Below, piece by piece: positions 8,594 to 64,000 of a DNA stretch of 64,000 bases. The DNA is from Bacteroidales bacterium. Its GTDB lineage: Bacteria; Bacteroidota; Bacteroidia; Bacteroidales; VadinHA17. The stretch spans positions 64,784 to 128,783 of the forward strand of contig PLLO01000013.1 of assembly GCA_003142255.1 (NCBI GenBank). Direction: 5' to 3'. The notes beneath the pieces are model-generated. The model had not been told where the DNA came from. It did not search any database and worked only from the letters and a program-made list of their open reading frames with translations. Position 1 is the first letter of the stretch. Each line of letters opens with the position of its first letter. A program made the position numbers and the translations under genes.

Positions 8594-9583
8594 ATGAAAT
8601 ATATCCGGATGTCACTTCTTGACGAAATCAGAAAGCCTGTTTTAAAGGAGATGGATGAATTTGAATCCTACTTCAACAGGACCATGAAAAGCGATGTACC
8701 GCTTCTGAAAATTGTCCTGAACTATATTCTGAGGAGGAAGGGGAAGCAGATGAGGCCGCTCCTGGTATTCCTTACTGCAAAGCTTAACGGCAAAATTTCT
8801 GAGCCAACATATGTGGCAGCGACTTTGATTGAACTGCTTCATACTGCGTCGCTTGTACACGATGATGTTGTTGATGATGCCCATGAGAGGCGCGGTGCGC
8901 TGTCGGTCAATGCATTGTGGAACTCAAAAATTGCCGTTCTTGCTGGCGATTATATGCTGTCAGCCGGCCTGCTCATCAGCGTTGAGAAATCGCGATATGA
9001 TATGCTGGAGATCGTTTCCGAATCAGTTCAGTCTATGGCAGAAGGAGAGCTCCTTCAGCTTCAGAAAGCCAGGAAGATGAATATCAAAGAGGAGGATTAT
9101 TATAAGATTATCATAAGCAAAACAGCGGCCCTGATCGCTGCATGCACAGCTACCGGAGCCCGGTCTGTGACAGAAGATCCCGACACAATTCAGCTTATGA
9201 AGGATTTTGGGGAGAATATCGGAATTGCATTCCAGATAAGGGATGATATCCTCGATTATGAATCAAACGGTCTTACCGGTAAAACAGTCGGCAACGATAT
9301 AAAAGAAAGGAAAATAACCCTTCCTCTTATCCATTCTCTTGAGCTTGCTTCTTTGCCGCTGAAAAGAAAAATACTTTCCATTGTTAAAAGCAGGAAGAAG
9401 ACCCGGGGAGAGATCAATGAAGTTATAAAATTCGTATCATCGACTGGCGGCATTGAATATGCTGAAACTAAAATGAATCAGTACCGTGACAAGGCGCTTG
9501 CCATTCTTGATTCGTACCCCGCTTCGGATGTTAAAGAATCGCTGCAGCAGTTCGTCAATTACACAACTTCCCGAAATAAATAA
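8594..9583 (+). CDS. Polyprenyl diphosphate synthase (trans-IPPS, IspB-like)
   Basis: 329 aa; both aspartate-rich motifs LVHDDVVDD and FQIRDDILD. A TATATTTG box at 8585-8592 suggests the second Met (8609) may be the true start. Confidence 0.85.
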   Translation: MKYIRMSLLDEIRKPVLKEMDEFESYFNRTMKSDVPLLKIVLNYILRRKGKQMRPLLVFLTAKLNGKISEPTYVAATLIELLHTASLVHDDVVDDAHERRGALSVNALWNSKIAVLAGDYMLSAGLLISVEKSRYDMLEIVSESVQSMAEGELLQLQKARKMNIKEEDYYKIIISKTAALIAACTATGARSVTEDPDTIQLMKDFGENIGIAFQIRDDILDYESNGLTGKTVGNDIKERKITLPLIHSLELASLPLKRKILSIVKSRKKTRGEINEVIKFVSSTGGIEYAETKMNQYRDKALAILDSYPASDVKESLQQFVNYTTSRNK

Positions 9584-9591
9584 CAGCCCTG

Positions 9592-10881
9592 TCAGGCGGC
9601 TTCTGCTTCAAGGTTAATCTTGGTGACTTTGTCCATGTCCTTCACATAATGGCGTGATCCCAGGTAAAACAACAGTGATCCAAGAACCAGCATAAAAGGT
9701 AGAATTTTCATTGCAGTGCTCAGATCCGACAAATCTGAAATCTTTCCAAGAACAATCGGGGCCGTAAATGAGCCCAGTAAATTCTGAACTGCTACTGCAA
9801 TAGCATATGATGTTGCGCGCAGTCCTGGATGAATGACATCCTGTGTTACGGCAGCAGCTCCTGCTATGAAGGTCATTATCAGCACTCCAAAAATAAACAA
9901 AGTAATCAGCTGCCCTGTCCCTTTCATAAAAAAGAAAGCCAGAAATAGCAGTAAGGCTGAAACAAACGTGGAAAGCGCCGGAAACAAAAGCCTTGCATTT
10001 GGTTGTTTTATCCTCCATTTATCAATTATCACGCCTCCAAGCGGCGCGCCAATAAGGGCTAAAAGCATTACTGCACCTGCCATTGTGCCTGCCGCCTTTG
10101 GCTGAATGTGACGTACTACTTCAAAGTATTTCGGGAGCCAGACTATCATTGCCGTTGTAACAAACACGATGGCAGCCATCCCGAAATAAGTGAAGATCAC
10201 AGATGGCTTTGAGATAAACTCCCTGATCATGTCTTTCTTTTCCATCTTGATTTTATTGTTGCTTTTATCAACGAAGGAAAGATCAACCGTTTTGTAATCT
10301 TTTACAAAAAGGAACAGAATGGCAATAATCAGTCCCGGTACGGCTACAATGCCGAAAGCATGCTTCCAGCCCCAGGCTTGTGCAATAATCCCGCCCATAG
10401 TTACTCCTATTGCAGAACCAAGGGGGATTGAAGCATTCCAGAATCCCATCATCTTTGATCTTTTTTCGAGCGGATATATGCCTGATATTAGGGCGCTTCC
10501 GCCCGGCGCATATCCTGCTTCGCCAAATCCTATAAATATTCTCGCCATAAAAAGCTGTACATAATTGCCGGTAAAGGCACAGACTGCAGTTGCAACACTC
10601 CAGACGATTGCCATAATTCCAATTGTCTTAGTTCTGCTCCAGCGGTCGATAAAAATTGATACCGGGAACGTCAGAATGCCGATCGAAAGATAAATTATGG
10701 AAACCAGCCATCCACATTGAGTGTCGTTTATAAACCAGTCTTTCTGTATCGATGTAAACATTGAGTTTACTACCATCCTGTCGGCATAATCAAACAGGTA
10801 TAGCAGAAACAGAAGTATGAATACATAATTTGAATACCGGAGTGAAAACAGGTATCCCTGGCGGTTTTCAGTACTTTTCAT
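9592..10881 (-). CDS. MFS transporter
   Basis: Start moved to MKSTENRQGYLF; about 12 TM helices; DRWSR loop motif between TM2 and TM3. Confidence 0.75.
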   Translation of the reverse strand: MKSTENRQGYLFSLRYSNYVFILLFLLYLFDYADRMVVNSMFTSIQKDWFINDTQCGWLVSIIYLSIGILTFPVSIFIDRWSRTKTIGIMAIVWSVATAVCAFTGNYVQLFMARIFIGFGEAGYAPGGSALISGIYPLEKRSKMMGFWNASIPLGSAIGVTMGGIIAQAWGWKHAFGIVAVPGLIIAILFLFVKDYKTVDLSFVDKSNNKIKMEKKDMIREFISKPSVIFTYFGMAAIVFVTTAMIVWLPKYFEVVRHIQPKAAGTMAGAVMLLALIGAPLGGVIIDKWRIKQPNARLLFPALSTFVSALLLFLAFFFMKGTGQLITLFIFGVLIMTFIAGAAAVTQDVIHPGLRATSYAIAVAVQNLLGSFTAPIVLGKISDLSDLSTAMKILPFMLVLGSLLFYLGSRHYVKDMDKVTKINLEAEAA

Positions 10882-11969: not shown

Positions 11970-13841
11970 ATGAGAAAACGATTTCTTAAGTCATTTGGAT
12001 TTACTTTGGTTTTAACGTTGTTGCTGTCGTCAGTAATGTTTTCGCAACCGGGAATTTCGATAAAGGATAAGTACGACAAGCAGGAAGTTTATATCACTAT
12101 GCGCGACGGGGTAAGGCTTTTTACTTCAATCTATACTCCCAAAAACGATTCAGTGAAACATCCCATTCTAATGAACCGGACTCCCTATAACATAGAGGGA
12201 GGCGGCCCGGAAAGATATAACAGCTATCTGATGGTCTATTCCAGGTTTACCAGGGAAAACTATATTATGGTCTTCCAGGATGTCCGCGGGAAATTCATGA
12301 GCGAAGGCGAATATGAGGATATCCGCCCGGTTAATCCAGATAAAAAAAACAATAAGGATATTGATGAGACTACAGACACGTGGGACACTGTTGACTGGCT
12401 CATAAAAAATGTAAAAAACAATAATGGGAATGTCGGTATTTTTGGGATTTCCTATCCTGGTTTCTATTCGACAATGGGAATAATAAATGCTCATCCGGCA
12501 GTCAAGGCGGTTTCGCCGCAGGCTCCCGTAACTGCATGGTTCATAGGAGATGATGTTCATCATAATGGTGCTTTCTTCCTTCTTGACTGTTTCCCATTTG
12601 ATTTCTGGTTTGGAAAGCCGCGCAGGGGGCCGACAAGGATCGGAAATCCTAATTTTGTATGGCCGACTCCTGATAATTACGAGTTTTTTCTTTCTGCAGG
12701 AGCCATCCGAAACCTTTCTCCGAAATATTTCGGCGATAGTGTCAGGTGGTGGAAAGAGACTTTCGCCCACCCGGATTATGACGATTTCTGGAAGTCACGC
12801 GATCCCCAGCAATACCTGAAAAACGTAACACCAGCAGTAATGACTGTTGGCGGATGGTTTGATGCAGAAGATATGTATGGCGCTCTTCACACGTACCAGT
12901 CAATTGAAAAGCAAAATCCTCCCTCAACAAAAAACTATCTCGTTATGGGTCCCTGGTCCCATGGTCAGTGGATGTTCGGGAAGGCCACAAATATGGGTAA
13001 TATATACTGGGGGGTTGATGCAAATCAGAAATTTGCAGAAGAAGAGGTCAATTTCTTTGATTATTACCTCATGGGCAAAGGAGAACTTAATATCCCTGAA
13101 GCAACAATATTTGTCACGGGTTCAAATGAATGGAGAAAATTTGACAAATGGCCGCCTGAAAATGTAACTGAAAAGAACATATACCTTATGCCGGAAGAAA
13201 TAGCTTCTTTCTCAGCGCCTTCATTAAAAAGCAGTTATGACGAATATTTATCCGACCCGATGCACCCTGTCCCATATACTGAAGATGTTCATGCCCGCAG
13301 AACGACCGCCTACATGACTGATGACCAAAGATTTGCATCACGCAGGCCTGACGTTATGGTTTACCAGACAGGGGTGCTCACTGAAGATATCACTTTTACG
13401 GGTCCGCTGACTGCCGACCTTTTTGTTTCGACCACCGGTACTGATGCTGATTTTATTGTCAAGCTTATAGATGTTCTTCCTCCCGACACCAAGGCCGCTC
13501 CTGATCAGAATGTAAAAGTTCCTCTTGGCGGTTATCAGATGCTGGTGCGGGGAGAGGTTTTCAGAGGCAAATACCGGAATAGCTTTGAGAAACCGGAGCC
13601 TTTCAGGCCAGGGAAAGTAACTGAAGTGAAATATTCAATACCCGATGTGGCCCACACCTTTAAAAAAGGACACAGGATAATGATCCAGGTTCAGAATTCA
13701 TGGTTTCCGCTGGTCGACAGAAACCCCCAGAAATTTGTAGATATCTATACCTGTTCTGACAGCGATTTCCAGAAGGCCACCATGCGTATTTATCATGATG
13801 CCGCTCATCCGTCAAATCTAAAGGTAAAAGTTCTGAAATGA
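11970..13841 (+). CDS. CocE/NonD family hydrolase (X-Pro dipeptidyl-peptidase S15-like), secreted
   Basis: 623 aa; signal peptide; nucleophile elbow GISYPGF; size and C-terminal beta domain typical of the family. Confidence 0.75.
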   Translation: MRKRFLKSFGFTLVLTLLLSSVMFSQPGISIKDKYDKQEVYITMRDGVRLFTSIYTPKNDSVKHPILMNRTPYNIEGGGPERYNSYLMVYSRFTRENYIMVFQDVRGKFMSEGEYEDIRPVNPDKKNNKDIDETTDTWDTVDWLIKNVKNNNGNVGIFGISYPGFYSTMGIINAHPAVKAVSPQAPVTAWFIGDDVHHNGAFFLLDCFPFDFWFGKPRRGPTRIGNPNFVWPTPDNYEFFLSAGAIRNLSPKYFGDSVRWWKETFAHPDYDDFWKSRDPQQYLKNVTPAVMTVGGWFDAEDMYGALHTYQSIEKQNPPSTKNYLVMGPWSHGQWMFGKATNMGNIYWGVDANQKFAEEEVNFFDYYLMGKGELNIPEATIFVTGSNEWRKFDKWPPENVTEKNIYLMPEEIASFSAPSLKSSYDEYLSDPMHPVPYTEDVHARRTTAYMTDDQRFASRRPDVMVYQTGVLTEDITFTGPLTADLFVSTTGTDADFIVKLIDVLPPDTKAAPDQNVKVPLGGYQMLVRGEVFRGKYRNSFEKPEPFRPGKVTEVKYSIPDVAHTFKKGHRIMIQVQNSWFPLVDRNPQKFVDIYTCSDSDFQKATMRIYHDAAHPSNLKVKVLK

Positions 13842-55166: not shown

Positions 55167-55275
55167 TAATATTTTTTCTTATTTCATTTTCGGCCCCGGA
55201 TGAAAAATCCAGGAGTCGTGGCCACTTTTGGCCAGTCATTCCGGGTACCCGGGGACACCTGACAAACAATCAAAA

Positions 55276-57420
55276 ATGAAACAAACATTTATACTTCTGA
55301 CTATTGGGCTCTTCTTTGCCGGAACAATAAGCCTGACGGCTCAGAATAAGCTATTTACTGCCGGTGATTACCTAAACCGCGAATTGTCGCCAAAGAGCAT
55401 AACAGGAATCTCCTGGCGCGGAAACCTGGATGCATTTACCTTTATCGAGAATAACTGTCTTATTCAGAAAACCGCTGACAATCCGGCAATGGCAGATACC
55501 ATTCTTGCCCTGCCAGTCCTGAATTCAAAGCTGAAAGACCTGAAACAGGCTGCGCTCACTCAATTTCCGGCAATAACCTGGATGGATAATAACCGGCTTT
55601 ATTACCGGGATCAGGCAGGTATATTTTTGTTTGATTTTGCGGCCTTCACTCTCGTAAAAGCCAATGAATATGACAAAGGCGGAGAAAACATTGCCATCGA
55701 CAAAAAGAAGCTGCACGTGGCTTACACTTTAAAGAACAACCTTTTTGTTGTAATTAACGGCGAGACTATTCAGGTTACTGATGAAAAGAACAGCGACATC
55801 GTTTACGGGCAGATACCGTCGAGAAATGAATTTGGCATAGATGCCGGCTCATACTGGTCGCCTGACGGGGAATTGCTGGCTTTTTACAAAACCGATCAGA
55901 GTGAGGTGGCTGATTATCCGTTGGTCGACATTTTTGACCGGGTTGCCCAGGTTGCGCCAATAAAATATCCCATGGCAGGCATGAAAAGCCAGAAGGTTGA
56001 GCTGGGAGTCTTTAATCCTGCTCTGAACGAGATAGTTTACCTTCAGACTACAGGTCCTGAAAACCAATATATTACCTCGGTAAGCTGGGATCCGTCGTGC
56101 AGGTTCATTTATGCCGGCATTCTGAACCGGGACCAGGACCATTTTACAATGAACAAATATGAAACCAGCACCGGGAAGCTGGTCAAAGCCCTGTTCGAAG
56201 AGAAGAACGACAGATATGTTGAGCCGATGCATGGCTTGTATTTCCCTGAAAATGATACATCAAAGTTTATCTGGCAGAGCCGCCGCGACGGCTGGAATCA
56301 TCTTTACCTTTATGATACGGAAGGGACTATGATCCGGCAGATCACCCGTGGCAGCTGGGAAGTGACCGACCTCCTGGGCTGTGACCCGCAGGGAAACTCG
56401 GTTTTTTATGAATCAACCATGGAGAGCCCCATTGAAAAGCATCTTTATAAAACCGGGATAAAATCCGGTAAAACTGAACGGCTGACTACATCCGAAGGGA
56501 TGCACAACAATATTGCGGCAGGTAGCAGGAATTATTTTATTGATGTTTTCAGCAGCCCACAGATGGCACGAGCATATTATTTGCTCGACAGGAAAGGAGT
56601 GAAGCTTGCCACACTGAAAGAAGATACAAATCCTTACAAGGATTACAAAATCGGTGCAATGTCGATTTTCACAATAAAAGCTGACGACGGTCTCACTGAC
56701 CTTTATTGCCGTCTGATAAAGCCGGTTGATTTTGATCCTGCAAGAAAATACCCGGTCTTCGTTTATATTTATGGCGGGCCCCATGCACAGATGATCAATA
56801 AATCATGGACTGGCGGTGCAGGTTTTTTCCTGAATTACATTGCCCAGCAGGGCTATGTGGTTTTTACCCTCGACAACCGCGGCTCGGCAAACCGGGGATT
56901 TGAGTTTGAAAGCATCATTCACCGGCAGCTTGGTGAGAATGAGATGGCCGACCAGATGGCAGGCGTCAGGTATATTAAATCGCTTGATTATGTCGATACC
57001 ACCCGGATTGGCCTGAATGGCTGGAGCTATGGCGGGTTTATGACTATTTCGCTCATGCTGCGCCACCCCGGTGTTTTCAAGGTTGCGTGTGCCGGAGGCC
57101 CGGTTATCGACTGGAAATGGTACGAGGTAATGTATGGCGAGCGATATATGGATACACCCATGAAAAACCCCGAAGGCTATAAAAGAGCCTCCCTGATTAA
57201 TTATGTCGGCAACCTGAAAGGAAAATTATTGATTATTCATGGAACCAACGACAACACGGTCGTCTGGCAAAATAGTCTTACGTTTCTTGACGAGTGTATC
57301 AAGCAGGGGAAGCAGGTTGATTATTTCGTATATCCCGGGGCCGAGCATAACATGGTCGGCAAAGCAAAAGTGCATCTTTTTGAAAAAATATCTGGATATT
57401 TCAACGATTATTTAAAATAA
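55276..57420 (+). CDS. Dipeptidyl-peptidase IV (S9B family), secreted
   Basis: Start moved to MKQTFILLTIGLFF; DPPIV N-terminal propeller; GWSYGG nucleophile; C-terminal D and H residues. Confidence 0.85.
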   Translation: MKQTFILLTIGLFFAGTISLTAQNKLFTAGDYLNRELSPKSITGISWRGNLDAFTFIENNCLIQKTADNPAMADTILALPVLNSKLKDLKQAALTQFPAITWMDNNRLYYRDQAGIFLFDFAAFTLVKANEYDKGGENIAIDKKKLHVAYTLKNNLFVVINGETIQVTDEKNSDIVYGQIPSRNEFGIDAGSYWSPDGELLAFYKTDQSEVADYPLVDIFDRVAQVAPIKYPMAGMKSQKVELGVFNPALNEIVYLQTTGPENQYITSVSWDPSCRFIYAGILNRDQDHFTMNKYETSTGKLVKALFEEKNDRYVEPMHGLYFPENDTSKFIWQSRRDGWNHLYLYDTEGTMIRQITRGSWEVTDLLGCDPQGNSVFYESTMESPIEKHLYKTGIKSGKTERLTTSEGMHNNIAAGSRNYFIDVFSSPQMARAYYLLDRKGVKLATLKEDTNPYKDYKIGAMSIFTIKADDGLTDLYCRLIKPVDFDPARKYPVFVYIYGGPHAQMINKSWTGGAGFFLNYIAQQGYVVFTLDNRGSANRGFEFESIIHRQLGENEMADQMAGVRYIKSLDYVDTTRIGLNGWSYGGFMTISLMLRHPGVFKVACAGGPVIDWKWYEVMYGERYMDTPMKNPEGYKRASLINYVGNLKGKLLIIHGTNDNTVVWQNSLTFLDECIKQGKQVDYFVYPGAEHNMVGKAKVHLFEKISGYFNDYLK

Positions 57421-57440
57421 TCTCAGGTGTAAAAGAATGA

Positions 57441-57477
57441 AAAAAGCCTTGCCACACAAAATGTGGCAAGGCTTTTA
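57441..57477. terminator. Bidirectional Rho-independent terminator
   Basis: Perfect 12-bp stem AGCCTTGCCACA / TGTGGCAAGGCT flanked by an A-run and a T-run, between convergent genes. Confidence 0.8.
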
Positions 57478-57511
57478 TTCTTGTTTTTTCGTGAACTTGA
57501 TTACCACTGAT

Positions 57512-58903
57512 TTATTGTGGTTTTGTGATAATATTAGCATCAAGGACGACTGCAGTCTGTGCCAGGGCTCTTCCATTCATTGAAGCGCCTGTCTTAAAAG
57601 TAATGCCTGTCTTGCATAATATGTTTCCTTCAAAATGAGCAGTTGTTCCCATAGTAGCTATCCCGGCAACCTGCCAGAAAATGTTTTTAGCCAATGCTCC
57701 TCCGCTCAGGGTTACATTCACAGCATTGCTTACTGTAAGGTCCTTTGAAATCTGAAAAATCCAAACATCGGTTGCGCTGCCCGAAATAGTCATGCTTGTT
57801 GGTACTAAAACAGTGGTCGACCATTTATAAAGGCCCGGTACCAGAGTTTTACCACCAATATTCCCGGTGTATAATTCTGTAAAATCCGGTAATGTTCTTC
57901 CTGCAGCATCAGTATACGCTGTTTCCATGTTACTGATAGCCGTTGTCATATTAGCAGGAGTCGGACTCGCATAGCCGGGCGCGTATATTTTTCCGGTCAC
58001 CAAAGATGATGTGGAAAATGCACTCCCTGCCGGAAGGATCAACGCAAATCCCGTTATGTAAGTCGCGGCAGCCGGACTAATTCCAATATCTCCGTTAATA
58101 TGGGTGGTTCCTGTCGTCGAAATTTTTGTTTTAGCCAGTATAGCAAAATTGGCAGCTGTTCCAAGATTTACAGCTGAGAGATTTGCCAATGAAGCACTGG
58201 TTGTAAAACTCCATCCGGTATTGGCGGCCAATGCATTACCGGCCAAGTCTTTTGCTCCGGTAGTTATCGTAGCGGTATAAACAGTAGAGGCTAAAAGTAC
58301 ATTTGTCGGAGTAAAGGTTGCAATTGTTCCGGTATAAGACACTGTACCGGGAACTGATGTTGTCCCTTGCTTTAATGTAAATGAAGAGGTTAACGATGAG
58401 GGATTCATTGCTTCACTGAAGTTTATTGATACTGCCTTGTCGCGTCCAACAGCTGTTGCATTGTTAAGCGGGCTGGTAGAGTTAATTGTGGGCAAAATAT
58501 TATCTGTTGCAGCACCAGTTGTAAAGGTGAAGGTATAATTGCTTAACATGGCAACGCCAGCCTCATTCTTAGCTCCGGTAGTGATTGTTCCGGTATAAAC
58601 AGTAGAAACTAAAAGCACATTTGTCGGAGTAAAAGTGGCAGATGTACCTATGTATGTTACGACACCGGGAACAGATGTTGACCCCTGGTTTAGCGTAAAA
58701 GTTAAACCTGTGATCGTTGAGATATCCATCGGTTCGCTAAATTCAACAACCACCATCCTGTTGATGGCCACCTGCGTAGAATTGTTAGCCGGGTTAGTTG
58801 AAGTCACTGTAGGCGTTCCACCGGTATCATTATTTTTTTTGCAACCGGCAATAAATACAATCAATAGCATTACTATGATTGAAAAAACACTTTTTAGTTT
58901 CAT
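57512..58903 (-). CDS. Lipoprotein with two Ig-like repeats and a C-terminal DUF3494 ice-binding-like beta-helix domain
   Basis: 463 aa; lipobox FIAGC; NLGTAANFAILAKT..INGDIGISP..ITGF, YTDAAGR, PGLYKW, VWIFQI, AKNIFWQVAG, AHFEGNIL and NGRALAQTAV match the IBP-1 (DUF3494) family. Confidence 0.85.
   Translation of the reverse strand: MKLKSVFSIIVMLLIVFIAGCKKNNDTGGTPTVTSTNPANNSTQVAINRMVVVEFSEPMDISTITGLTFTLNQGSTSVPGVVTYIGTSATFTPTNVLLVSTVYTGTITTGAKNEAGVAMLSNYTFTFTTGAATDNILPTINSTSPLNNATAVGRDKAVSINFSEAMNPSSLTSSFTLKQGTTSVPGTVSYTGTIATFTPTNVLLASTVYTATITTGAKDLAGNALAANTGWSFTTSASLANLSAVNLGTAANFAILAKTKISTTGTTHINGDIGISPAAATYITGFALILPAGSAFSTSSLVTGKIYAPGYASPTPANMTTAISNMETAYTDAAGRTLPDFTELYTGNIGGKTLVPGLYKWSTTVLVPTSMTISGSATDVWIFQISKDLTVSNAVNVTLSGGALAKNIFWQVAGIATMGTTAHFEGNILCKTGITFKTGASMNGRALAQTAVVLDANIITKPQ
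58208..58807 (-). repeat. Internal tandem duplication encoding the two Ig-like domains
   Basis: About 95-aa units share ...GT.SVPG.V.Y.GT.ATFTPTNVLL.STVYT.TITTGAK..AG.A; the similarity is visible at DNA level (compare 58275-58380 with 58593-58700). Confidence 0.75.
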
Positions 58904-58959
58904 TCTATTTATTTTTAATTATCATGGAACAAAGATACTTGTGACTATCCCGCAAAGTG

Positions 58960-58997
58960 TTACATGATTATTTAAAACAATTATATAATTCACACAT
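58960..58997 (-). promoter_or_regulatory. AraC-type direct-repeat operator, copy C (upstream of the ice-binding lipoprotein gene)
   Basis: TTACATgATTA-N10-TTATATaATTCACACAT; repeat starts are 21 bp apart; 56 nt upstream of start 58903. Confidence 0.55.
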
Positions 58998-59162
58998 TTA
59001 AAATATGTTATGCCATTCAATATAGAAGGTATAATGAACCTAATGGAATGATTCTTTAAATTTTGTAAAAATCACATTTAAGCATAATTGATTACAGAAA
59101 GTAATTCCTTATGTATAGGAATTGATAAAAGAATAAGCCGGTTCCTGGCAGCAAAAATTGAA

Positions 59163-59345
59163 TCAGAATGCAGCAATAATGTAAAGTAGTTCCAGATTTG
59201 TTTTTCCAAGCTTATTCCCCAGCATTTCTATCATTTCTTTCTCCTTCCCTTCGTGAAAGCTCAAATCCTGCTCGGTTATAGTTGGGAATTTCTGCTTGAG
59301 TTTTGATTTTGTCTTTCTCCAATATCCTGTAGAAATATTATCCAT
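59163..59345 (-). CDS. CsbD-like stress protein (divergent paralog)
   Basis: 60 aa; GYWRKTKSKLKQKFPTITEQDLSFHEGKEKEMIEMLGNKLG follows the CsbD pattern. Confidence 0.65.
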   Translation of the reverse strand: MDNISTGYWRKTKSKLKQKFPTITEQDLSFHEGKEKEMIEMLGNKLGKTNLELLYIIAAF

Positions 59346-59455
59346 TAATGTCTCCTTGTTGTCTTACTTCTGTGTAGTAGATTTATTTATTTTCTTTTTA
59401 AAAGTCGATTTAAAGTACTTTCTTGCCTTATTGATACCGGTAATTGATGCCAGCT

Positions 59456-59644
59456 TTATAATTCAGAAATAATCTTTCTTATCTCTTCTTTTGTTCTGCC
59501 AAGTTTAGCCTGCAGCCTGCCAAGCAACTCATCCTGTTTGCCTTCCACTAACAATAAATCATCATCTGTCAGCATTGCGAATTTTTGTTTCAGTTTCCCT
59601 TTTGTCACTTTCCAGTTACCTTGTAGTTCAGTAGAATTTTTCAT
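59456..59644 (-). CDS. csbD: CsbD family general stress protein
   Basis: 62 aa; GNWKVTKGKLKQKFAMLTDDDLLLVEGKQDELLGRLQAKLG. Confidence 0.8.
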   Translation of the reverse strand: MKNSTELQGNWKVTKGKLKQKFAMLTDDDLLLVEGKQDELLGRLQAKLGRTKEEIRKIISEL

Positions 59645-59713
59645 GATTATCAGAATTAATTAATTTACGCTTAAGTATCAGGACAAAGATGATCACTTGT
59701 ATGAAACAAATTA

Positions 59714-59751
59714 TTACATAATTCCGGGAATATGTTACATCATTCACACAT
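59714..59751 (-). promoter_or_regulatory. AraC-type direct-repeat operator, copy A (upstream of csbD)
   Basis: TTACATaATTC-N10-TTACATcATTCACACAT; 69 nt upstream of start 59644. Confidence 0.6.
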
Positions 59752-59779
59752 ACTGGTTTTTACGTTCCGGGGGTTATAG

Positions 59780-59808
59780 AAAAGAGCGTTGGATAGCAAC
59801 GCTCTTTT
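59780..59808. terminator. Terminator of the araC-kinase-regulator operon
   Basis: 12-bp perfect stem AAAAGAGCGTTG / CAACGCTCTTTT with a 5-nt loop, 31 nt after the response regulator stop. Confidence 0.7.
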
Positions 59809-59838
59809 ATTATCCCGCAAATATTTACTGTAATAATA

Positions 59839-60276
59839 TTACTGCAACTTCTCCATGTACCAGCTCAATGTCTTCTCTATTTTCTGAGTATGAAAAATGG
59901 CGGTAATGGTTTTTTGTAATCGGATGAATGCAGTTTCACTTTTAACAATATAATCAAAGGCTTTGTGATGCATGCAGTTTATCGCCACTTCGATTTTATC
60001 CTGGGAAGATAACATGACCACAGGAATTTCAGGATTAAACGCTTTTATTTTATCTAACGTTTCTATTCCGTTCATCGCTGTCTTATCAACGCCGTCAAGG
60101 CGATAATCTAAAATGATCAAATCAGGGTTGTGCGATAAATTAGCTATGCAAATTTCGCCTGTTGCAAATGATTCAATAGCAAAATTGGCATGTTGCAGGA
60201 ATTCAATTTCCAATAATTTCAGATACACTGAATCATCATCTACAAGAAAAAGTTTTATTTTATTTCCCTCATTCAT
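59839..60276 (-). CDS. Single-domain response regulator (receiver only)
   Basis: 145 aa; LVDDD acidic pocket, ILDYRL phospho-acceptor Asp, conserved downstream Lys; ATGA overlap with the kinase stop. Confidence 0.85.
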   Translation of the reverse strand: MNEGNKIKLFLVDDDSVYLKLLEIEFLQHANFAIESFATGEICIANLSHNPDLIILDYRLDGVDKTAMNGIETLDKIKAFNPEIPVVMLSSQDKIEVAINCMHHKAFDYIVKSETAFIRLQKTITAIFHTQKIEKTLSWYMEKLQ

Positions 60277-62894
60277 TTGTCAGCGTTTTTAATTGTATTA
60301 AACTCTTCTTTTAATTCCTTACACGCCTTCTTACAAACGATTTCAAGCTGTAAAACCAGATCTGGCAATTCATCTGTTTGCTGCTTTGTTCTTGAGTATT
60401 CCTGTACCTTTTTTGCCATGCTTTCGAAATCGGCACTTATCCCCATTATTGAAAATGAGGGTATCATTTTATGTACTGCCGCGTGCAATGAATCCCAATC
60501 TTTATCCTTCAGGCTTTGTTTCATTGTTTTAATTAAGGCCGGGGTTTGTATTAGATAAGCTGAAATCATTTCCATCATCAATGCCGGATCAGACTTTGTA
60601 AGGTGGTTTAGATAGTCCAGGTTGGTTTTTTTTAACTTTTTACTTACCCGCACTCCGGTCTTATTATTTATGCCAATAACCACGGAGGGTTTTACTATCC
60701 CAACTATTTTACTGTATAATAATCTTTCGTCGATAGGCTTGGCGATGTAGTCGTTCATTCCAACAGCTTTGCATTTCTTTAAGTCGACAGTGGTTACATC
60801 AGCAGTTAACGCGATAATAGGGATGTTGGAATTAAGTTTTTTTCGGATGTATTCTGTAGCTTCAAACCCATTCATTACCGGCATCTGCAAGTCCATTAAA
60901 ATAACATCGTATGATTTATTTTTTAGTTTTTCGATGGCTATTTTCCCGTTTTCGGCAATATCGTGTTCAAATCCGAAATCATCCAATAATGTTTTCATCA
61001 ATAATTGATTTAGTGCTATGTCTTCAACTATCAATACTTTTATATCTTTAATTTCAGCATTCAATCCCACTATTTCAGTTTCTGATTCAACTTCAGCTGT
61101 TGTTTTCAGAAAGCTTAGCACAAAACTAAAAGTAGATCCCTTATGAATTTTGCTTTTTACACTAATACTTCCACCCTGTGCTTCAACTAATTGTTTAGAA
61201 ATGGCAAGTCCAAGGCCAGTGCCCCCATACAGCCTTGCAGTATCACTGGAGGCTTGTTGGAAGTTTTCAAAAATATGTTCTAATTTTTCTTTTGCTATTC
61301 CAATTCCGGTATCCGTAACTGCAAATTCAATAGTTGATTTGTCTTCATCTTCATTCAGTAATTGAACACTAACCGTAATTTCGCCTTTTGTTGTAAATTT
61401 TACTGCATTGCTGACAAGGTTTAGAATAATCTGGTGCAACCGGACAGGATCGCCAACCACTACCTTAGGAATTCTTTTGTCATATTTTTTTATCAGCTTC
61501 AGGTTTTTTTCCTGAATTTTTGTTTCAAATACATGAATCATTGCTGCAATTGAGGTGTCCAATTTGAATGCAATTTGTTCAAATATCATTTTCCCGGCAT
61601 CAACTTTTGCCAAATCGAGTATGTCGTTAATAAGTACGATTAATGAATCGCCACTCATTTTTATTGCAGTTAAGTATTCCTTTTGTTTTGGCGTCAATTT
61701 TGTTTTCAACACAACTTTTGTAAATCCTATAATCGCATTCATTGGAGTGCGGATTTCATGACTCATGTTTGACAAAAATTGTTGTTTCGATTTCACGGCA
61801 TTTTCTGCTATTACCGTGGCCTCTTCAGCTTTCACTTTTGCTTCTTCAGCAAAACCTGTTGCCAGCTCGGCAAATACAATTGCCTCTGTCAGTTCTGTTG
61901 AAATTCTTTTTTGCTCTGTAATATCCCTTGCCACAACAACAACTCCAAGTACATTTCCGCTGTCATCTTTATAAACCGAACCATTAAATAATACGTCAGT
62001 AAGCTTACCGTCCTTATGACGAAGCGTAAGCGGAGAATCAGCAACAGAACCTTTTGCGAACACTTCCTGATATACTTCACGCGCTTTTTGTGGTTCGGTG
62101 AAATAATTGAAAAAATGGGTGCCAGTCAGTTTTTTGCGTGTTAAACCCGTAATATTCACGGTTGCCTGATTCATATCAGTGACTTTACCTTGGGTATTTA
62201 TAGTAATCAATGGGTCTAGACTCGCCTCAATAAGACTACGTGCATAGTTAGCAATCCTTAACTCTTCAGCCCTTTTCCTTTTCTCCTCGATTTGAAAAGC
62301 AAGTTCTTTGTTGGCAATAATTAATTCGTCTGCTCTTTTTTCTTTCTCGCCGTTTTGAAAGGCAAGCTCTTTGTTGGCAATAATTAATTCGTCTGCTCTT
62401 TTTTCTTTCTCGCCATTTTGAAAGGCAAGCTCTTTGTTAGCAATGAATAATTCGTCTGCTCTTTTTTCTTTCTCGCCGTTTTGAAAGACAAGTTCTTTGT
62501 TGGCAATTTTTAACTCTGTGGCCCATTTTTGCTCGGAAATATCTCTTGCTACGACAACTGCACCAAGAACCTTTCCTTTTTCATCTTTATAAACCGATCC
62601 ATTGAATAATACATCCGTAAGCTTGCCGTTTTTATGGCGAAATGTGAGGGGAGAATCGGCAACAGATCCTTTTGCAAACACTTCAAGGTAAACGTCACGC
62701 GCTTTTTGTGGTTCCGTGAAATAATCAAAAAAATCAGATCCGAGAAGTTTTTCACGTTCTAAGCCAGTAATGTTCACCTTTGCCTGATTCATGTCCGTAA
62801 TCTTGCCTCTGGTGCTTATTACAATTAATGGATCAAGGCTGGCTTCTATCAAACTGCTGGCGTAATAAGATTCATGCAACTTTGTTCTTTCCAT
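60273..62894 (-). CDS. Hybrid sensor histidine kinase: PAS, 21-aa coiled-coil repeats, PAS, HisKA, HATPase, REC, HPt
   Basis: 873 aa; two roughly 80 percent identical PAS modules; H-box SHEIRTPMNAI; G-box GTGLGL; receiver DVILMDLQMP; C-terminal HPt (HKMIPSFSIMG). Confidence 0.9.
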   Translation of the reverse strand: MERTKLHESYYASSLIEASLDPLIVISTRGKITDMNQAKVNITGLEREKLLGSDFFDYFTEPQKARDVYLEVFAKGSVADSPLTFRHKNGKLTDVLFNGSVYKDEKGKVLGAVVVARDISEQKWATELKIANKELVFQNGEKEKRADELFIANKELAFQNGEKEKRADELIIANKELAFQNGEKEKRADELIIANKELAFQIEEKRKRAEELRIANYARSLIEASLDPLITINTQGKVTDMNQATVNITGLTRKKLTGTHFFNYFTEPQKAREVYQEVFAKGSVADSPLTLRHKDGKLTDVLFNGSVYKDDSGNVLGVVVVARDITEQKRISTELTEAIVFAELATGFAEEAKVKAEEATVIAENAVKSKQQFLSNMSHEIRTPMNAIIGFTKVVLKTKLTPKQKEYLTAIKMSGDSLIVLINDILDLAKVDAGKMIFEQIAFKLDTSIAAMIHVFETKIQEKNLKLIKKYDKRIPKVVVGDPVRLHQIILNLVSNAVKFTTKGEITVSVQLLNEDEDKSTIEFAVTDTGIGIAKEKLEHIFENFQQASSDTARLYGGTGLGLAISKQLVEAQGGSISVKSKIHKGSTFSFVLSFLKTTAEVESETEIVGLNAEIKDIKVLIVEDIALNQLLMKTLLDDFGFEHDIAENGKIAIEKLKNKSYDVILMDLQMPVMNGFEATEYIRKKLNSNIPIIALTADVTTVDLKKCKAVGMNDYIAKPIDERLLYSKIVGIVKPSVVIGINNKTGVRVSKKLKKTNLDYLNHLTKSDPALMMEMISAYLIQTPALIKTMKQSLKDKDWDSLHAAVHKMIPSFSIMGISADFESMAKKVQEYSRTKQQTDELPDLVLQLEIVCKKACKELKEEFNTIKNADK
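62247..62516 (-). repeat. In-frame 63-bp tandem repeat, about 4.3 copies (ELxIANKELAFQNGEKEKRAD)
   Basis: Near-identical 63-bp units read directly, for example 62324-62386 against 62387-62449. Confidence 0.85.
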
Positions 62895-62904
62895 TTTATT
62901 TGTT

Positions 62905-63495
62905 TTATTCCGCCTCTGAAAATGCTGAATTTATTTTACCAATTTCCTCAATCGGGATTCGTCTTTTGTTCTTCAGATTTTTGAAATGCGAAGGCGAGAG
63001 TCCTGTAATTTTCTTAAATTGATTGGATAAATGAGCAGCACTGCTGTAGTGCATCTTCCAGGCAATTTCTGTGAGGCTAAGTTCATCATAAATAATCAGC
63101 TCTTTTACCCTTTCAATTTTATGGGAGATGAGGAATCTCTCAATTGTAGTCCCCTGTACTTCTGAAAATAAGTTTGCCAGGTAAGTATAATCGTAATCTA
63201 ATTTTTCGCTTAAGAAATCAGAAAAATTTACTTTGGGCAATTCATCAGAATAATGAACCATTTCAATGACTACTTTTTTTATTTGTTCAATAAGTATGGC
63301 TTTCTTGTCATCCATCAGTTCCAGTCCTGACCTGAGCAAGGCAATTCTTATTTGCTCCCGCTGATCCAATGTGATATCTTCCATGATATCTGCCACCCCC
63401 ATATCAACAATAAAGTGAAGGCCGAGGTTCTTTAACTCTTCCCTTACCATCATTTTGCATCTGTTGCTAACCATATATTTGATATGCAGCTTCAA
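62905..63495 (-). CDS. AraC family transcriptional regulator with small N-terminal ferredoxin-like (HMA-like) domain
   Basis: 196 aa (TTG start; alternative ATG at MVSNRCK); C-terminal HTH_18 (LTEIAWKMHYSSAAHLSNQFKKITGLSPSHF); 10-bp gap to the kinase start. Confidence 0.8.
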   Translation of the reverse strand: MKLHIKYMVSNRCKMMVREELKNLGLHFIVDMGVADIMEDITLDQREQIRIALLRSGLELMDDKKAILIEQIKKVVIEMVHYSDELPKVNFSDFLSEKLDYDYTYLANLFSEVQGTTIERFLISHKIERVKELIIYDELSLTEIAWKMHYSSAAHLSNQFKKITGLSPSHFKNLKNKRRIPIEEIGKINSAFSEAE

Positions 63496-63558
63496 ATAGG
63501 GTTTTTAATAAGCGATTTAATTACAAAGTAAAGATGCAATCCAATAATTTGAATTGCA

Positions 63559-63596
63559 TTACATAATTCTGCGAATAAGTTACATTATTCACACAT
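63559..63596 (-). promoter_or_regulatory. AraC-type direct-repeat operator, copy B (upstream of araC itself)
   Basis: TTACATaATTC-N10-TTACATtATTCACACAT; 63 nt upstream of start 63495. Confidence 0.6.
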
Positions 63597-63598
63597 GA

Positions 63599-64000
63599 TT
63601 ATTCAAACCGCACCCAGTCTAATTCAATATTGCCGGATTTTTTCAGTGATACAATCAGGTTATGAATACCTGGTTTGAGTTTTGATACACGTGCCTCCAC
63701 CGCATTCCATTCAGCTCCTCCTGATATTTTTACTTCAGCAATTACTGGTCCGTCAGGTTTATCCAACCTGATTTTCAGGATTCCTCCCGTTTTTGATGAA
63801 GCCTTTACCTGGATGGTATTGAATTTTCTATTTCCGAAATCTACAGCGTTATATTGTACCCAGGCATTCGGGGAATCAAGTATTATCTTCCATCCTTCAA
63901 AGGTGTTGAGCGTGTCAATAAATGCTATTGATGCGCCCTTATCACTAATGCGACTGTACCTGTCGATCTCTATTTTTTTGAAAGCATCGGTTAACGCTAC
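63599..64000 (-). CDS. C-terminal CBM6-like carbohydrate-binding module of a larger protein (partial, continues past window end)
   Basis: Own translation: ...FEGWKIILDSPNAWVQYNAVDFGNRKFNTIQVKASSKTGGILKIRLDKPDGPVIAEVKISGGAEWNAVEARVSKLKPGIHNLIVSLKKSGNIELDWVRFE*, the typical CBM6 pattern. Confidence 0.7.
   Translation of the reverse strand, partial: VALTDAFKKIEIDRYSRISDKGASIAFIDTLNTFEGWKIILDSPNAWVQYNAVDFGNRKFNTIQVKASSKTGGILKIRLDKPDGPVIAEVKISGGAEWNAVEARVSKLKPGIHNLIVSLKKSGNIELDWVRFE

Follow-up and report, generated by a model that had tools for sequence, protein, structure and literature searches.

A bipartite, predicted AraC-type activator site at araC, csbD and DUF3494 promoters suggests a dispersed, stress-type regulon in the Bacteroidota

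The 64,000-nt stretch of DNA analysed here (the window) covers positions 64,784 to 128,783 of contig PLLO01000013.1, from a member of the Bacteroidales (VadinHA17; GenBank assembly GCA_003142255.1). Near its end is a run of genes (57512–63495), all on the minus strand, which begins with a gene for an AraC-type regulator, referred to here as araC (62905–63495), and continues with genes for a cytoplasmic hybrid histidine kinase (60273–62894) and a stand-alone receiver (59839–60276). Beyond these are csbD (59456–59644), a second, divergent csbD-like gene (59163–59345) and a gene for a lipoprotein with a DUF3494 domain (57512–58903). A first-pass annotation aligned three 38-nt sites in front of araC, csbD and the DUF3494 gene, and proposed that these are operators of a self-contained circuit, in which the AraC protein controls its own operon, CsbD and an ice-binding protein in response to cold, freezing or osmotic stress. 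The gene identities on which this rested (AraC, PAS hybrid kinase, receiver, CsbD and DUF3494 lipoprotein) all have Pfam matches. Here we investigate by computation the motif, its geometry and conservation, the content of the regulon, and the co-variation of regulator and motif. Judged from sequence, the motif and regulator pair looks like something larger than the local circuit first proposed: a phylum-wide, undescribed stress-type regulon.

The three sites are exact matches to a common 38-nt pattern, at 58960–58997, 59714–59751 and 63559–63596, and 0.00 matches are expected in the window (100 dinucleotide shuffles). On the coding strand they have the form ATGTGTGAATnATrTAAy-N10-AATnATGTAAy, with the starts of the two units 21 bp apart, as had been noted. 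The predicted activator site of the araC promoter (63558–63596, minus strand) is comprised of the distal unit TGTGAATAATGTAAC at 63579–63593 and the proximal unit AATTATGTAAT at 63558–63568. That of csbD (59713–59751, minus strand) has TGTGAATGATGTAAC at 59734–59748 and the same proximal unit, AATTATGTAAT, at 59713–59723. The site of the DUF3494 gene (58959–58997, minus strand) has TGTGAATTATATAAT at 58980–58994 and AATCATGTAAC at 58959–58969. A position weight matrix (PWM) built across species, described below, finds these three sites alone in the window, at 44.2, 45.7 and 41.7 bits, respectively, and none in the remaining ~57 kb. The sites are 63 nt upstream of the TTG start codon of araC (63495), 69 nt upstream of that of csbD (59644) and 56 nt upstream of that of the DUF3494 gene (58903), all on the minus strand and in agreement with the 56–69 nt originally given.

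A third conserved element, missing from the first-pass annotation, is present in all three promoters. This is a -7 box located 57–64 nt downstream of the T of TGTGAAT: CATCTTTA at 63529–63536 for araC, CATCTTTG at 59684–59691 for csbD, and TATCTTTG at 58930–58937 for the DUF3494 gene, each on the minus strand. Because the flavobacterial -7 box TAnnTTTG occupies positions -12 to -5 (PMC9723704), transcription start sites (TSS) can be predicted at about 63524, 59679 and 58925, respectively, giving csbD a 35-nt leader. Relative to these, the distal unit would lie at about -69 to -55 and the proximal unit at about -44 to -34. A scanner for sigma-70 promoters and terminators was uninformative for Bacteroidota promoters. 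The araC promoter also contains, between the proximal unit and the -7 box, a locus-specific inverted repeat (63534–63559; ATGCAATTCAAATTATTGGATTGCAT, ATGCAAT..ATTGCAT), and the region that includes it folds well as RNA or DNA (z = -3.99). As a general second operator it was rejected, since an inverted repeat of at least 7 bp is found there in only 3 of 59 araC promoters.

How widely is this arrangement conserved? For comparison, 80 genomic loci (1.28 Mb) encoding AraC relatives with 70–86% identity were fetched from Bacteroidales, Chitinophagaceae, Flavobacteriales, Saprospiraceae, Cytophagales, Sphingobacteriales, Prolixibacteraceae and other groups. The motif is present in 80 of the 80, mostly in several copies. 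In gene orientation it reads aaATGTGTGAATnATGTAAC-N10-AATTrTGTAAC, followed at a set distance by the -7 box cAyCTTTG. In a matrix made from 228 sites, numbered from the T of TGTGAAT, the information is confined to -5 to +36 (aaATGTGTGAATnATGTAAC..TT.....AArTTrTGTAAC) and +57 to +65 (cAyCTTTG), with an information content of about zero in the flanks. The second block corresponds to the sigma-A -7 box of the Bacteroidota, TAnnTTTG, and is kept at +57 to +64 in 245 of 269 sites. Scanning the 80 loci with the PWM gave 259–287 sites, at thresholds from 20 down to 8 bits, versus 0–7 in shuffled sequences, and the score distribution was cleanly bimodal. The first-pass annotation had held that its proposal would fail if the sites were not conserved in related genomes or if they belonged to a dispersed repeat; neither is the case, the motif being conserved in related loci and set in unconserved flanks at a fixed promoter geometry.

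Most sites have the same orientation as araC (237, versus 29 in the opposite orientation), and the median distance to the next start codon is 106 nt. Site density is highest over the kilobase that precedes araC (72 sites in 78 loci), and there is a second peak just past the operon, at +3 to +4 kb. This distribution makes autoregulation of araC, as suggested from the window alone, very probable.

The spacing within the promoters was assessed using sites defined by the distal unit alone, in the genome loci only, to prevent circularity. Among 229 such sites, a proximal TRTAA begins at exactly +30 in 170, and TTT[GA] is found at +61 in 151 and at +60 in 23. TTTG occurs at the position of the -33 element in only about 10%. 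This rigid phasing, the lack of a -33 element and a proximal unit that ends at about -34 point to an activator-dependent promoter of class II type, from which we infer activation. The architecture that had suggested an AraC/XylS-type regulator, with direct repeats of 21-bp periodicity beside the core promoter, is borne out. The three sites in the window, reaching from about -69 to -34 upstream of the -7 box, would however be activator sites and not operators in the repressor sense.

Other natures for the motif were considered: a dispersed repeat (or miniature mobile element), a structured RNA, and a promoter used by an alternative sigma factor. There are many copies per genome region, and the region of the araC site folds well as RNA. 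A repeat or mobile element is excluded by flanks that are not conserved and by an orientation and a spacing, relative to the -7 box and start codons, that are fixed. The RNA reading was rejected because the units are direct rather than inverted repeats and are upstream of the predicted TSS, because the csbD and DUF3494 sites fold no better than shuffles (z = -0.14 and +0.37), and because a scan of 57000–64000 against Rfam at E ≤ 1 returned only chance-level matches, none of them at the sites; the fold at the araC site stems from the inverted repeat peculiar to that locus. With regard to an alternative sigma factor, the downstream element is a sigma-A -7 box, and the 24-nt gap between TGTAAC and CTTTG is a misfit to the -35/-10 spacing of ECF-type promoters. 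Together these explanations retain only a negligible probability. A reading of TGTGA... as a CRP-like palindrome was also rejected, as its two halves are not mirror images, the units are direct repeats and the orientation to the -7 box is fixed.

The product of araC is 196 aa and matches Pfam HTH_18 at 59.2 bits (cutoff 33.6) and HTH_AraC at 33.7 bits (cutoff 26.6). It thus has the C-terminal double helix-turn-helix (HTH) of ~100 aa that places it in the AraC/XylS family, and no NCBIfam equivalog names it. Protein searches returned more than 8000 matches in the Bacteroidota, the best 120 of which are 77–100% identical, and identity across orders is 70–90%. Many homologues begin MKLYIKYMVSxRCK, so the TTG start at 63495 is probably correct. 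In an AlphaFold (AF2) model (pLDDT 79), residues 1–60 form a beta-alpha-beta-beta-alpha-(beta) module, which is followed by a long linker helix and seven further helices. Foldseek matches the C-terminal part to AraT, YesN, MarA, SoxS, AdpA and the AraC DNA-binding domain, and for the N-terminal part it finds the copper chaperones CopZ and HAH1 (TM-score 0.65–0.72, relative to the target). The metal loop in this N-terminal part is degenerate, MVSxRC in place of MxCxxC with loss of the first Cys, and the N-terminal domain has no Pfam match even at E ≤ 10. From the model, it is HMA-like in fold only and does not qualify as an HMA domain; Cys13, His27, Met38 and Glu39 are conserved within it. The recognition helices, YTYLANLFSEVQ and AAHLSNQFKKIT, the second of which contains K162, are near-invariant across the 80 loci, in parallel with the invariance of the motif.

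Exceptions to this invariance connect the regulator with the motif, and are the strongest of all the evidence. Two loci (L010 and L016) have SNQFKM in the helix and TGCAAC in both units of the motif. A second protein search revealed a sub-clade, 82–100% identical to protein P0087, with M, L, A, T or S in place of K162, and the sample was enlarged by eight contigs with K162 variants and two K-keeping controls. A PWM neutralised at the diagnostic positions was used for the comparison. Where residue 162 is M, L or S, C is present at both +11 and +32 (GCAAC in both units) in 14 of 19 sites; where it is K, this is so in 2 of 267 (Fisher's test 6.6e-18, at the level of sites). The variant sites span araC, several DUF3494 and a CsbD promoter in 9 loci. 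One control (L209), a close relative, shares a neighbouring A to S change but retains K162, and it has TGTAAC at 4 of 4 strong sites; the other (L210), also with K, keeps TGTAAC at 3 of 3. The test covered residue 162; E112D was another candidate specificity determinant, and E to D is also seen in proteins that keep K162. The concerted change of both units at different promoters indicates that a trans-acting factor changed specificity. The co-variation of its recognition helix supports the AraC protein as the probable motif-binding factor, and it suggests that each unit is occupied by one monomer, whose second HTH contacts TGTAAC and whose first HTH contacts the (TGTG)AAT that precedes it.

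Alternatively, a different, unlinked transcription factor might bind the motif, with the araC-kinase-receiver operon merely one member of its regulon. Most sites in a scan that used the motif alone (below) are away from araC. The co-variation, too, rests essentially on one clade, and hence on one or a few evolutionary events, and another factor could have changed in the same lineage; this is a point against the AraC protein as the binding factor. Such an explanation nonetheless has to contend with direct repeats at 21 bp next to the -35 region, which are typical of AraC/XylS proteins, with araC as the only recurrent DNA-binding gene at the loci, with the equal and extreme conservation of protein and motif, and with a K162 to M/L change that tracks T to C in both units at several promoter classes. 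We consider it improbable.

A further group of four loci (L060, L063, L075 and L079) has a regulator that is ~70% identical, with the first recognition helix YTYLSNVFSEVK. The motif in this clade is looser, TGTGAwwTATrTAA, with a proximal unit that is weak or shifted, for example upstream of araC at ~9438. This clade may be a second case of regulator-site co-evolution.

The gene families downstream of the sites were identified by clustering the open reading frames (ORFs) that follow them. In the araC-centred loci, the targets are araC (52 sites, 47 loci), CsbD (27 sites, 24 loci), DUF3494 (23 sites, 20 loci), an OmpA-like lipoprotein (13 sites, 12 loci), GH130 (9 sites, 9 loci) and a small cupin (9 sites, 9 loci), with smaller clusters of lmo0937-family, Thivi_2564-family and other tiny membrane proteins, and of YtxH-like, BON, ferritin-like and PAP2 proteins. 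To escape the bias of araC-centring, metagenomes were scanned with the motif only, yielding 216 sites on 120 contigs. The targets there are CsbD (26), DUF3494 (16), OmpA-like (13), MlaE permease (9), cupin (8), araC (7) and lmo0937-family (6), and in smaller numbers YceI, Usp, DUF748, DUF6600, BON and an ECF sigma factor. Both sets have CsbD and DUF3494 genes among the most frequent targets, and the link of the regulator to these two, first drawn from the window, is conserved across the phylum. Of the 39 DUF3494 cluster members (23 genome and 16 metagenome sites), 35 match the ice-binding domain itself, and by these counts DUF3494 genes are tied to the motif whether or not araC is adjacent. 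Since araC is on only 6 of the 45 metagenome contigs of at least 5 kb, the regulon appears to be dispersed. It was thus not sustained that the three promoters form a self-contained regulon; recurrent gene families with the motif in front of them number at least 15.

In the window, csbD encodes a 62-aa member of the CsbD family (Pfam PF05532, 53 bits; cutoff 40). The 60-aa protein of the csbD-like gene that follows, which was absent from the first-pass annotation, matches NCBIfam PRK10428 at 21.9 bits and has no Pfam match. The 110-nt gap between the two genes (59346–59455) contains no PWM match of 8 bits or more and no called terminator, so the pair is probably bicistronic and co-transcribed. 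The DUF3494 lipoprotein has the lipobox FIAGC, two Big_5 Ig-like domains (149.7 bits) and a C-terminal Ice_binding domain, PF11999 (residues 255–460; 251.9 bits, cutoff 28.7). A bidirectional terminator hairpin with a stem of 15–16 bp follows its gene (57442–57476, both strands). The convergent gene beyond, for a DPP-IV/S9 peptidase (55228–57420), is without the motif and apparently unrelated to the regulon.

Does the system nevertheless serve cold, freezing or osmotic protection, as a local circuit acting through CsbD and an ice-binding protein? DUF3494 is the third most frequent target, and its genes are often directly after the operon: araC, kinase and receiver genes are followed by three Ice_binding genes in L208, two Ice_binding genes and CsbD are present in L205, and in L203 and L204 one Ice_binding gene is followed by a 62-aa ORF (annotated as CsbD in L204). 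Judged by their record names, many of the source metagenomes appear to be from peat, permafrost or lakes, in a sample that is biased. Set against these, at least 15 target families that recur have nothing to do with ice, most sites are distant from araC, and the DUF3494 protein of the window scores 258.6 bits with NCBIfam IBP_CFB, below the cutoff of 400 for the ice-binding equivalog. There is, in our judgement, a slim chance that the local explanation is right. The cold or freezing signal is without specific support, and the content of the regulon suggests a general or envelope-type stress response.

Several observations on the target promoters and genes outside the window may also be relevant. 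A further inverted repeat, GTGAA-N6-TTCAC (CTTTGyannGTGAAAATTnATTCACA), is located at the predicted TSS of many CsbD and DUF3494 promoters (for example L002:6310–6349, L029:8831–8870, L083:1801–1840 and L103:10643–10682), and is missing from the window promoters at 59653–59692 and 58899–58938. A regular expression for it matches 14 of 53 CsbD, 17 of 39 DUF3494, 0 of 59 araC and 1 of 17 cupin promoters. Pairing between its arms is 70.9%, compared with 62% in shuffled sequences and no more than 46% if the partner is shifted along, and GU pairs (19) outnumber UG pairs (6). This hints at a 5'-terminal RNA hairpin, with a palindromic operator as the alternative. In some CsbD 5' leaders the start codon is preceded by another hairpin, CCTGTCCC(n)CCAG(n)..(n)GGGAA, with apparent compensatory changes CCCTC/GAGGG, CCCGC/GCGG and CCCGG/CGGG (L055 ~9500–9540, L056 ~9560–9600 and ~13245–13285, L064 ~2685–2725, L121, L050, L025 and L177). 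The motif fronts a GH130 gene in L060, L063, L075 and L079 (site ~4190), and in L209 (13730–18260) it is found before a glycosyltransferase-GH130 cluster, beside genes with faint or weak GDE_C/GH100 Pfam matches. Sugar or compatible-solute metabolism may therefore belong to the response.

The araC, kinase and receiver genes are closely packed, with a gap of 10 nt between araC and the kinase gene (62895–62904) and an overlap of 4 nt between the kinase and receiver genes (60273–60276), as was first reported. The hairpin at 59780–59808 (minus strand), which closes the operon, has also been confirmed. It has a 12-bp stem, and the 76-nt stretch around it (59765–59840) folds at -21 kcal/mol (z = -3.9; 0 of 200 shuffles as stable). 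The scanner mentioned above passed over this hairpin, whose T-run is inside the stem. The kinase (873 aa, minus strand; Pfam 2xPAS-HisKA-HATPase-REC) is laid out as PAS, 21-aa coiled-coil repeats, PAS, HisKA (H379), HATPase, REC (D668) and an HPt-like tail (H808), with HisKA, HATPase_c and Response_reg above their Pfam cutoffs. No membrane segment was noticed in its sequence by eye, no transmembrane prediction having been run. The repeats (ANKELAFQNGEKEKRADELII), between two near-duplicate PAS domains, are encoded by a 63-bp tandem repeat (62280–62507; 3.6 copies, 92% matches). The tail includes the motif HKMIPSFSIMG, which contains H808, and an ArcB-like alignment runs through the HPt region to residue 863; a PDB sequence search with the tail found no match. 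The receiver (145 aa, minus strand; Response_reg 67.2 bits) consists of a REC domain only, with D57, so that the phospho-acceptor residues H379, D668, H808 and D57 are all in place. The AraC protein is the only DNA-binding protein of the module, as the receiver is without an output domain. In 63 loci with at least 4 kb downstream of araC, the kinase core follows araC in 53 and the stand-alone receiver follows araC or the kinase in 57, both at ~70% identity. The kinase core is offset from araC by 447 to ~2500 nt, a spread that most likely reflects a varying number of N-terminal PAS domains.

It may be that the AraC protein binds the motif but that the kinase and receiver are not its input. The HMA-like domain would then sense a ligand, metal or redox state, or abundance alone would set the output, with the kinase and receiver as co-expressed outputs or as a feedback branch directed at other targets. 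The N-terminal domain is well conserved and folds as an independent module. Three araC paralogues that are 70–74% identical (L057, L065 and L073) are without a downstream kinase and receiver, and in some variant loci (L202–L204 and L207) the kinase is located elsewhere and not directly downstream of araC. Moreover, the tail of the kinase scores 21 bits with Pfam Hpt, below the cutoff of 24.6, and the proposed kinase and receiver input is read from conserved synteny and translational coupling alone. All of these observations weigh against a phosphorelay as the input. However, the araC-kinase-receiver order, with its short gaps and overlaps, is kept in 53–57 of the 63 loci and across orders, and a receiver without an output domain is accompanied by AraC as the sole DNA-binding protein. 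We therefore regard an independent regulator as unlikely, although it deserves to be kept in view. In the three paralogue loci, a motif site (~10557 in each) lies across the 3' end of the araC ORF and serves the gene that comes after it; a single contig carries both L062 and L073, as copies separated by ~15 kb.

Considering all of the evidence, the sites are probably bipartite sites of an AraC-type activator that drives a phylum-wide, dispersed, stress-type regulon. Each site in the window would have two parts and serve an activator at a Bacteroidota promoter of sigma-A type without a -33 element. Two copies of the HMA-like/AraC protein would bind the tandem direct repeats (TGTG)AATnATGTAAC and AATTrTGTAAC, 21 bp apart, and in each monomer the second HTH would read TGTAAC, with K162 against the T/C position, and the first (TGTG)AAT. 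The proximal monomer, ending at about -34, would recruit RNA polymerase as class II activators do. In the window this would activate the operon of the regulator itself, csbD together with its paralogue, and the gene of the DUF3494 lipoprotein; elsewhere in the Bacteroidota the targets would include CsbD, DUF3494, OmpA-like, MlaE, BON, YceI, Usp, lmo0937-family, YtxH-like, ferritin-like, PAP2 and GH130 proteins. We infer, for the input, a PAS kinase phosphorelay from His379 to Asp668 to His808 to Asp57 of the stand-alone receiver, which would modulate the activator through its N-terminal domain, and for the physiological signal a stress. The result would be a positively autoregulated, general-stress-like regulon in which an activator, together with the housekeeping sigma factor, takes the role of an alternative sigma factor. 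In addition to the points already raised, two more count against this. The counts cover loci and contigs and not whole genomes, which bears on the size of the regulon and on the co-occurrence of regulator and motif, and only the annotations of the targets suggest a general or envelope-type stress response.

Mechanistically, the closest analogy is with AraC/XylS class II activators on tandem direct repeats, such as AraC at I1-I2, XylS at Pm, RhaS/RhaR and MelR. The shared features are the C-terminal double HTH, direct repeats with a periodicity of ~21 bp, on which two monomers are predicted to sit here, a promoter-proximal repeat that abuts or overlaps the -35 region, and autoregulation, which is frequent in that family and very probable here. 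Here, however, the N-terminal domain has a ~60-aa HMA/ferredoxin-like fold and is not a cupin or a ligand-binding/dimerisation domain, the core promoter has the Bacteroidota -7 element (TAnnTTTG), the targets are stress or envelope genes and not a catabolic operon, and the gene is joined to a putative phosphorelay operon. MarA, SoxS and Rob, which are among the best structural matches of the DNA-binding domain (TM-score 0.71–0.76, relative to the target), are stress-responsive, as is proposed for this regulator, and act at many dispersed promoters. Unlike MarA and SoxS, which are abundance-controlled and bind as monomers to a single ~20-bp box, the present regulator has two rigidly spaced units and an extra N-terminal domain.

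In its domain parts the module resembles a split version of the Bacteroides hybrid two-component systems (HTCS) or of the REC-AraC regulators YesN and AraT, which in Bacteroidota or Firmicutes connect an AraC-type HTH output with a histidine kinase and receiver. In the PDB, the best Foldseek matches of the HTH domain are AraT (6swi) and YesN (3lsg), and another is 12aw, named 'hybrid two-component system protein'. The differences are that there are three separate proteins and no single polypeptide, that the PAS sensor is cytoplasmic and not periplasmic, that the AraC protein has no receiver domain, the kinase no HTH and the receiver no output domain, and that the regulon is not a polysaccharide utilisation locus. 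With the general stress systems, namely sigma-B of Bacillus and Listeria, sigma-S of Enterobacteria, PhyR-NepR-EcfG of Alphaproteobacteria and RsbK-RsbY of B. cereus, the comparison is one of content. The regulons of sigma-B, sigma-S and EcfG overlap with the present one in CsbD, BON/OsmY-like, Usp, ferritin/Dps-like, lmo0937-family and YtxH-like proteins; positive autoregulation, predicted here, would be shared; and several have PAS or hybrid kinase and receiver input of the kind proposed here. All of these systems work through an alternative sigma factor, whereas the evidence here favours an activator with the housekeeping sigma factor.

We know of no RpoS, SigB or EcfG-type system described for the Bacteroidota, and searches of the literature revealed none. 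Nor did the open-access texts searched describe the motif, the regulator subfamily or any regulator of bacterial DUF3494 genes. One paper (PMC11109978) mentions CsbD, only for a Streptococcus yjbJ RNA motif. We tentatively raise the possibility, on which we stop short of even confidence, that the general stress response of the Bacteroidota is run by this phylum-wide, positively autoregulated HMA-like/AraC activator, acting with the housekeeping sigma factor at promoters without a -33 element and switched by a cytoplasmic PAS phosphorelay whose last member is the stand-alone receiver, with DUF3494 surface proteins as core members and not as dedicated cold proteins.

If this is true, the Bacteroidota, which inhabit soils, waters, sediments and guts, would gain a defined master stress regulator, and a general-stress-like programme would have been built from an activator and a phosphorelay instead of an alternative sigma factor. 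The 36-bp motif and its rigid geometry could be used to annotate the regulon in any genome or metagenome, and the shared promoter would provide a handle on small proteins such as the lmo0937 and Thivi_2564 families, DUF6600 and DUF748. K162 is a candidate base-contact residue, predicted to read the T/C position of TGTAAC. Likewise, DUF3494 genes would have their first candidate regulator, and many 'ice-binding-like' proteins would be recast as general stress or envelope proteins.

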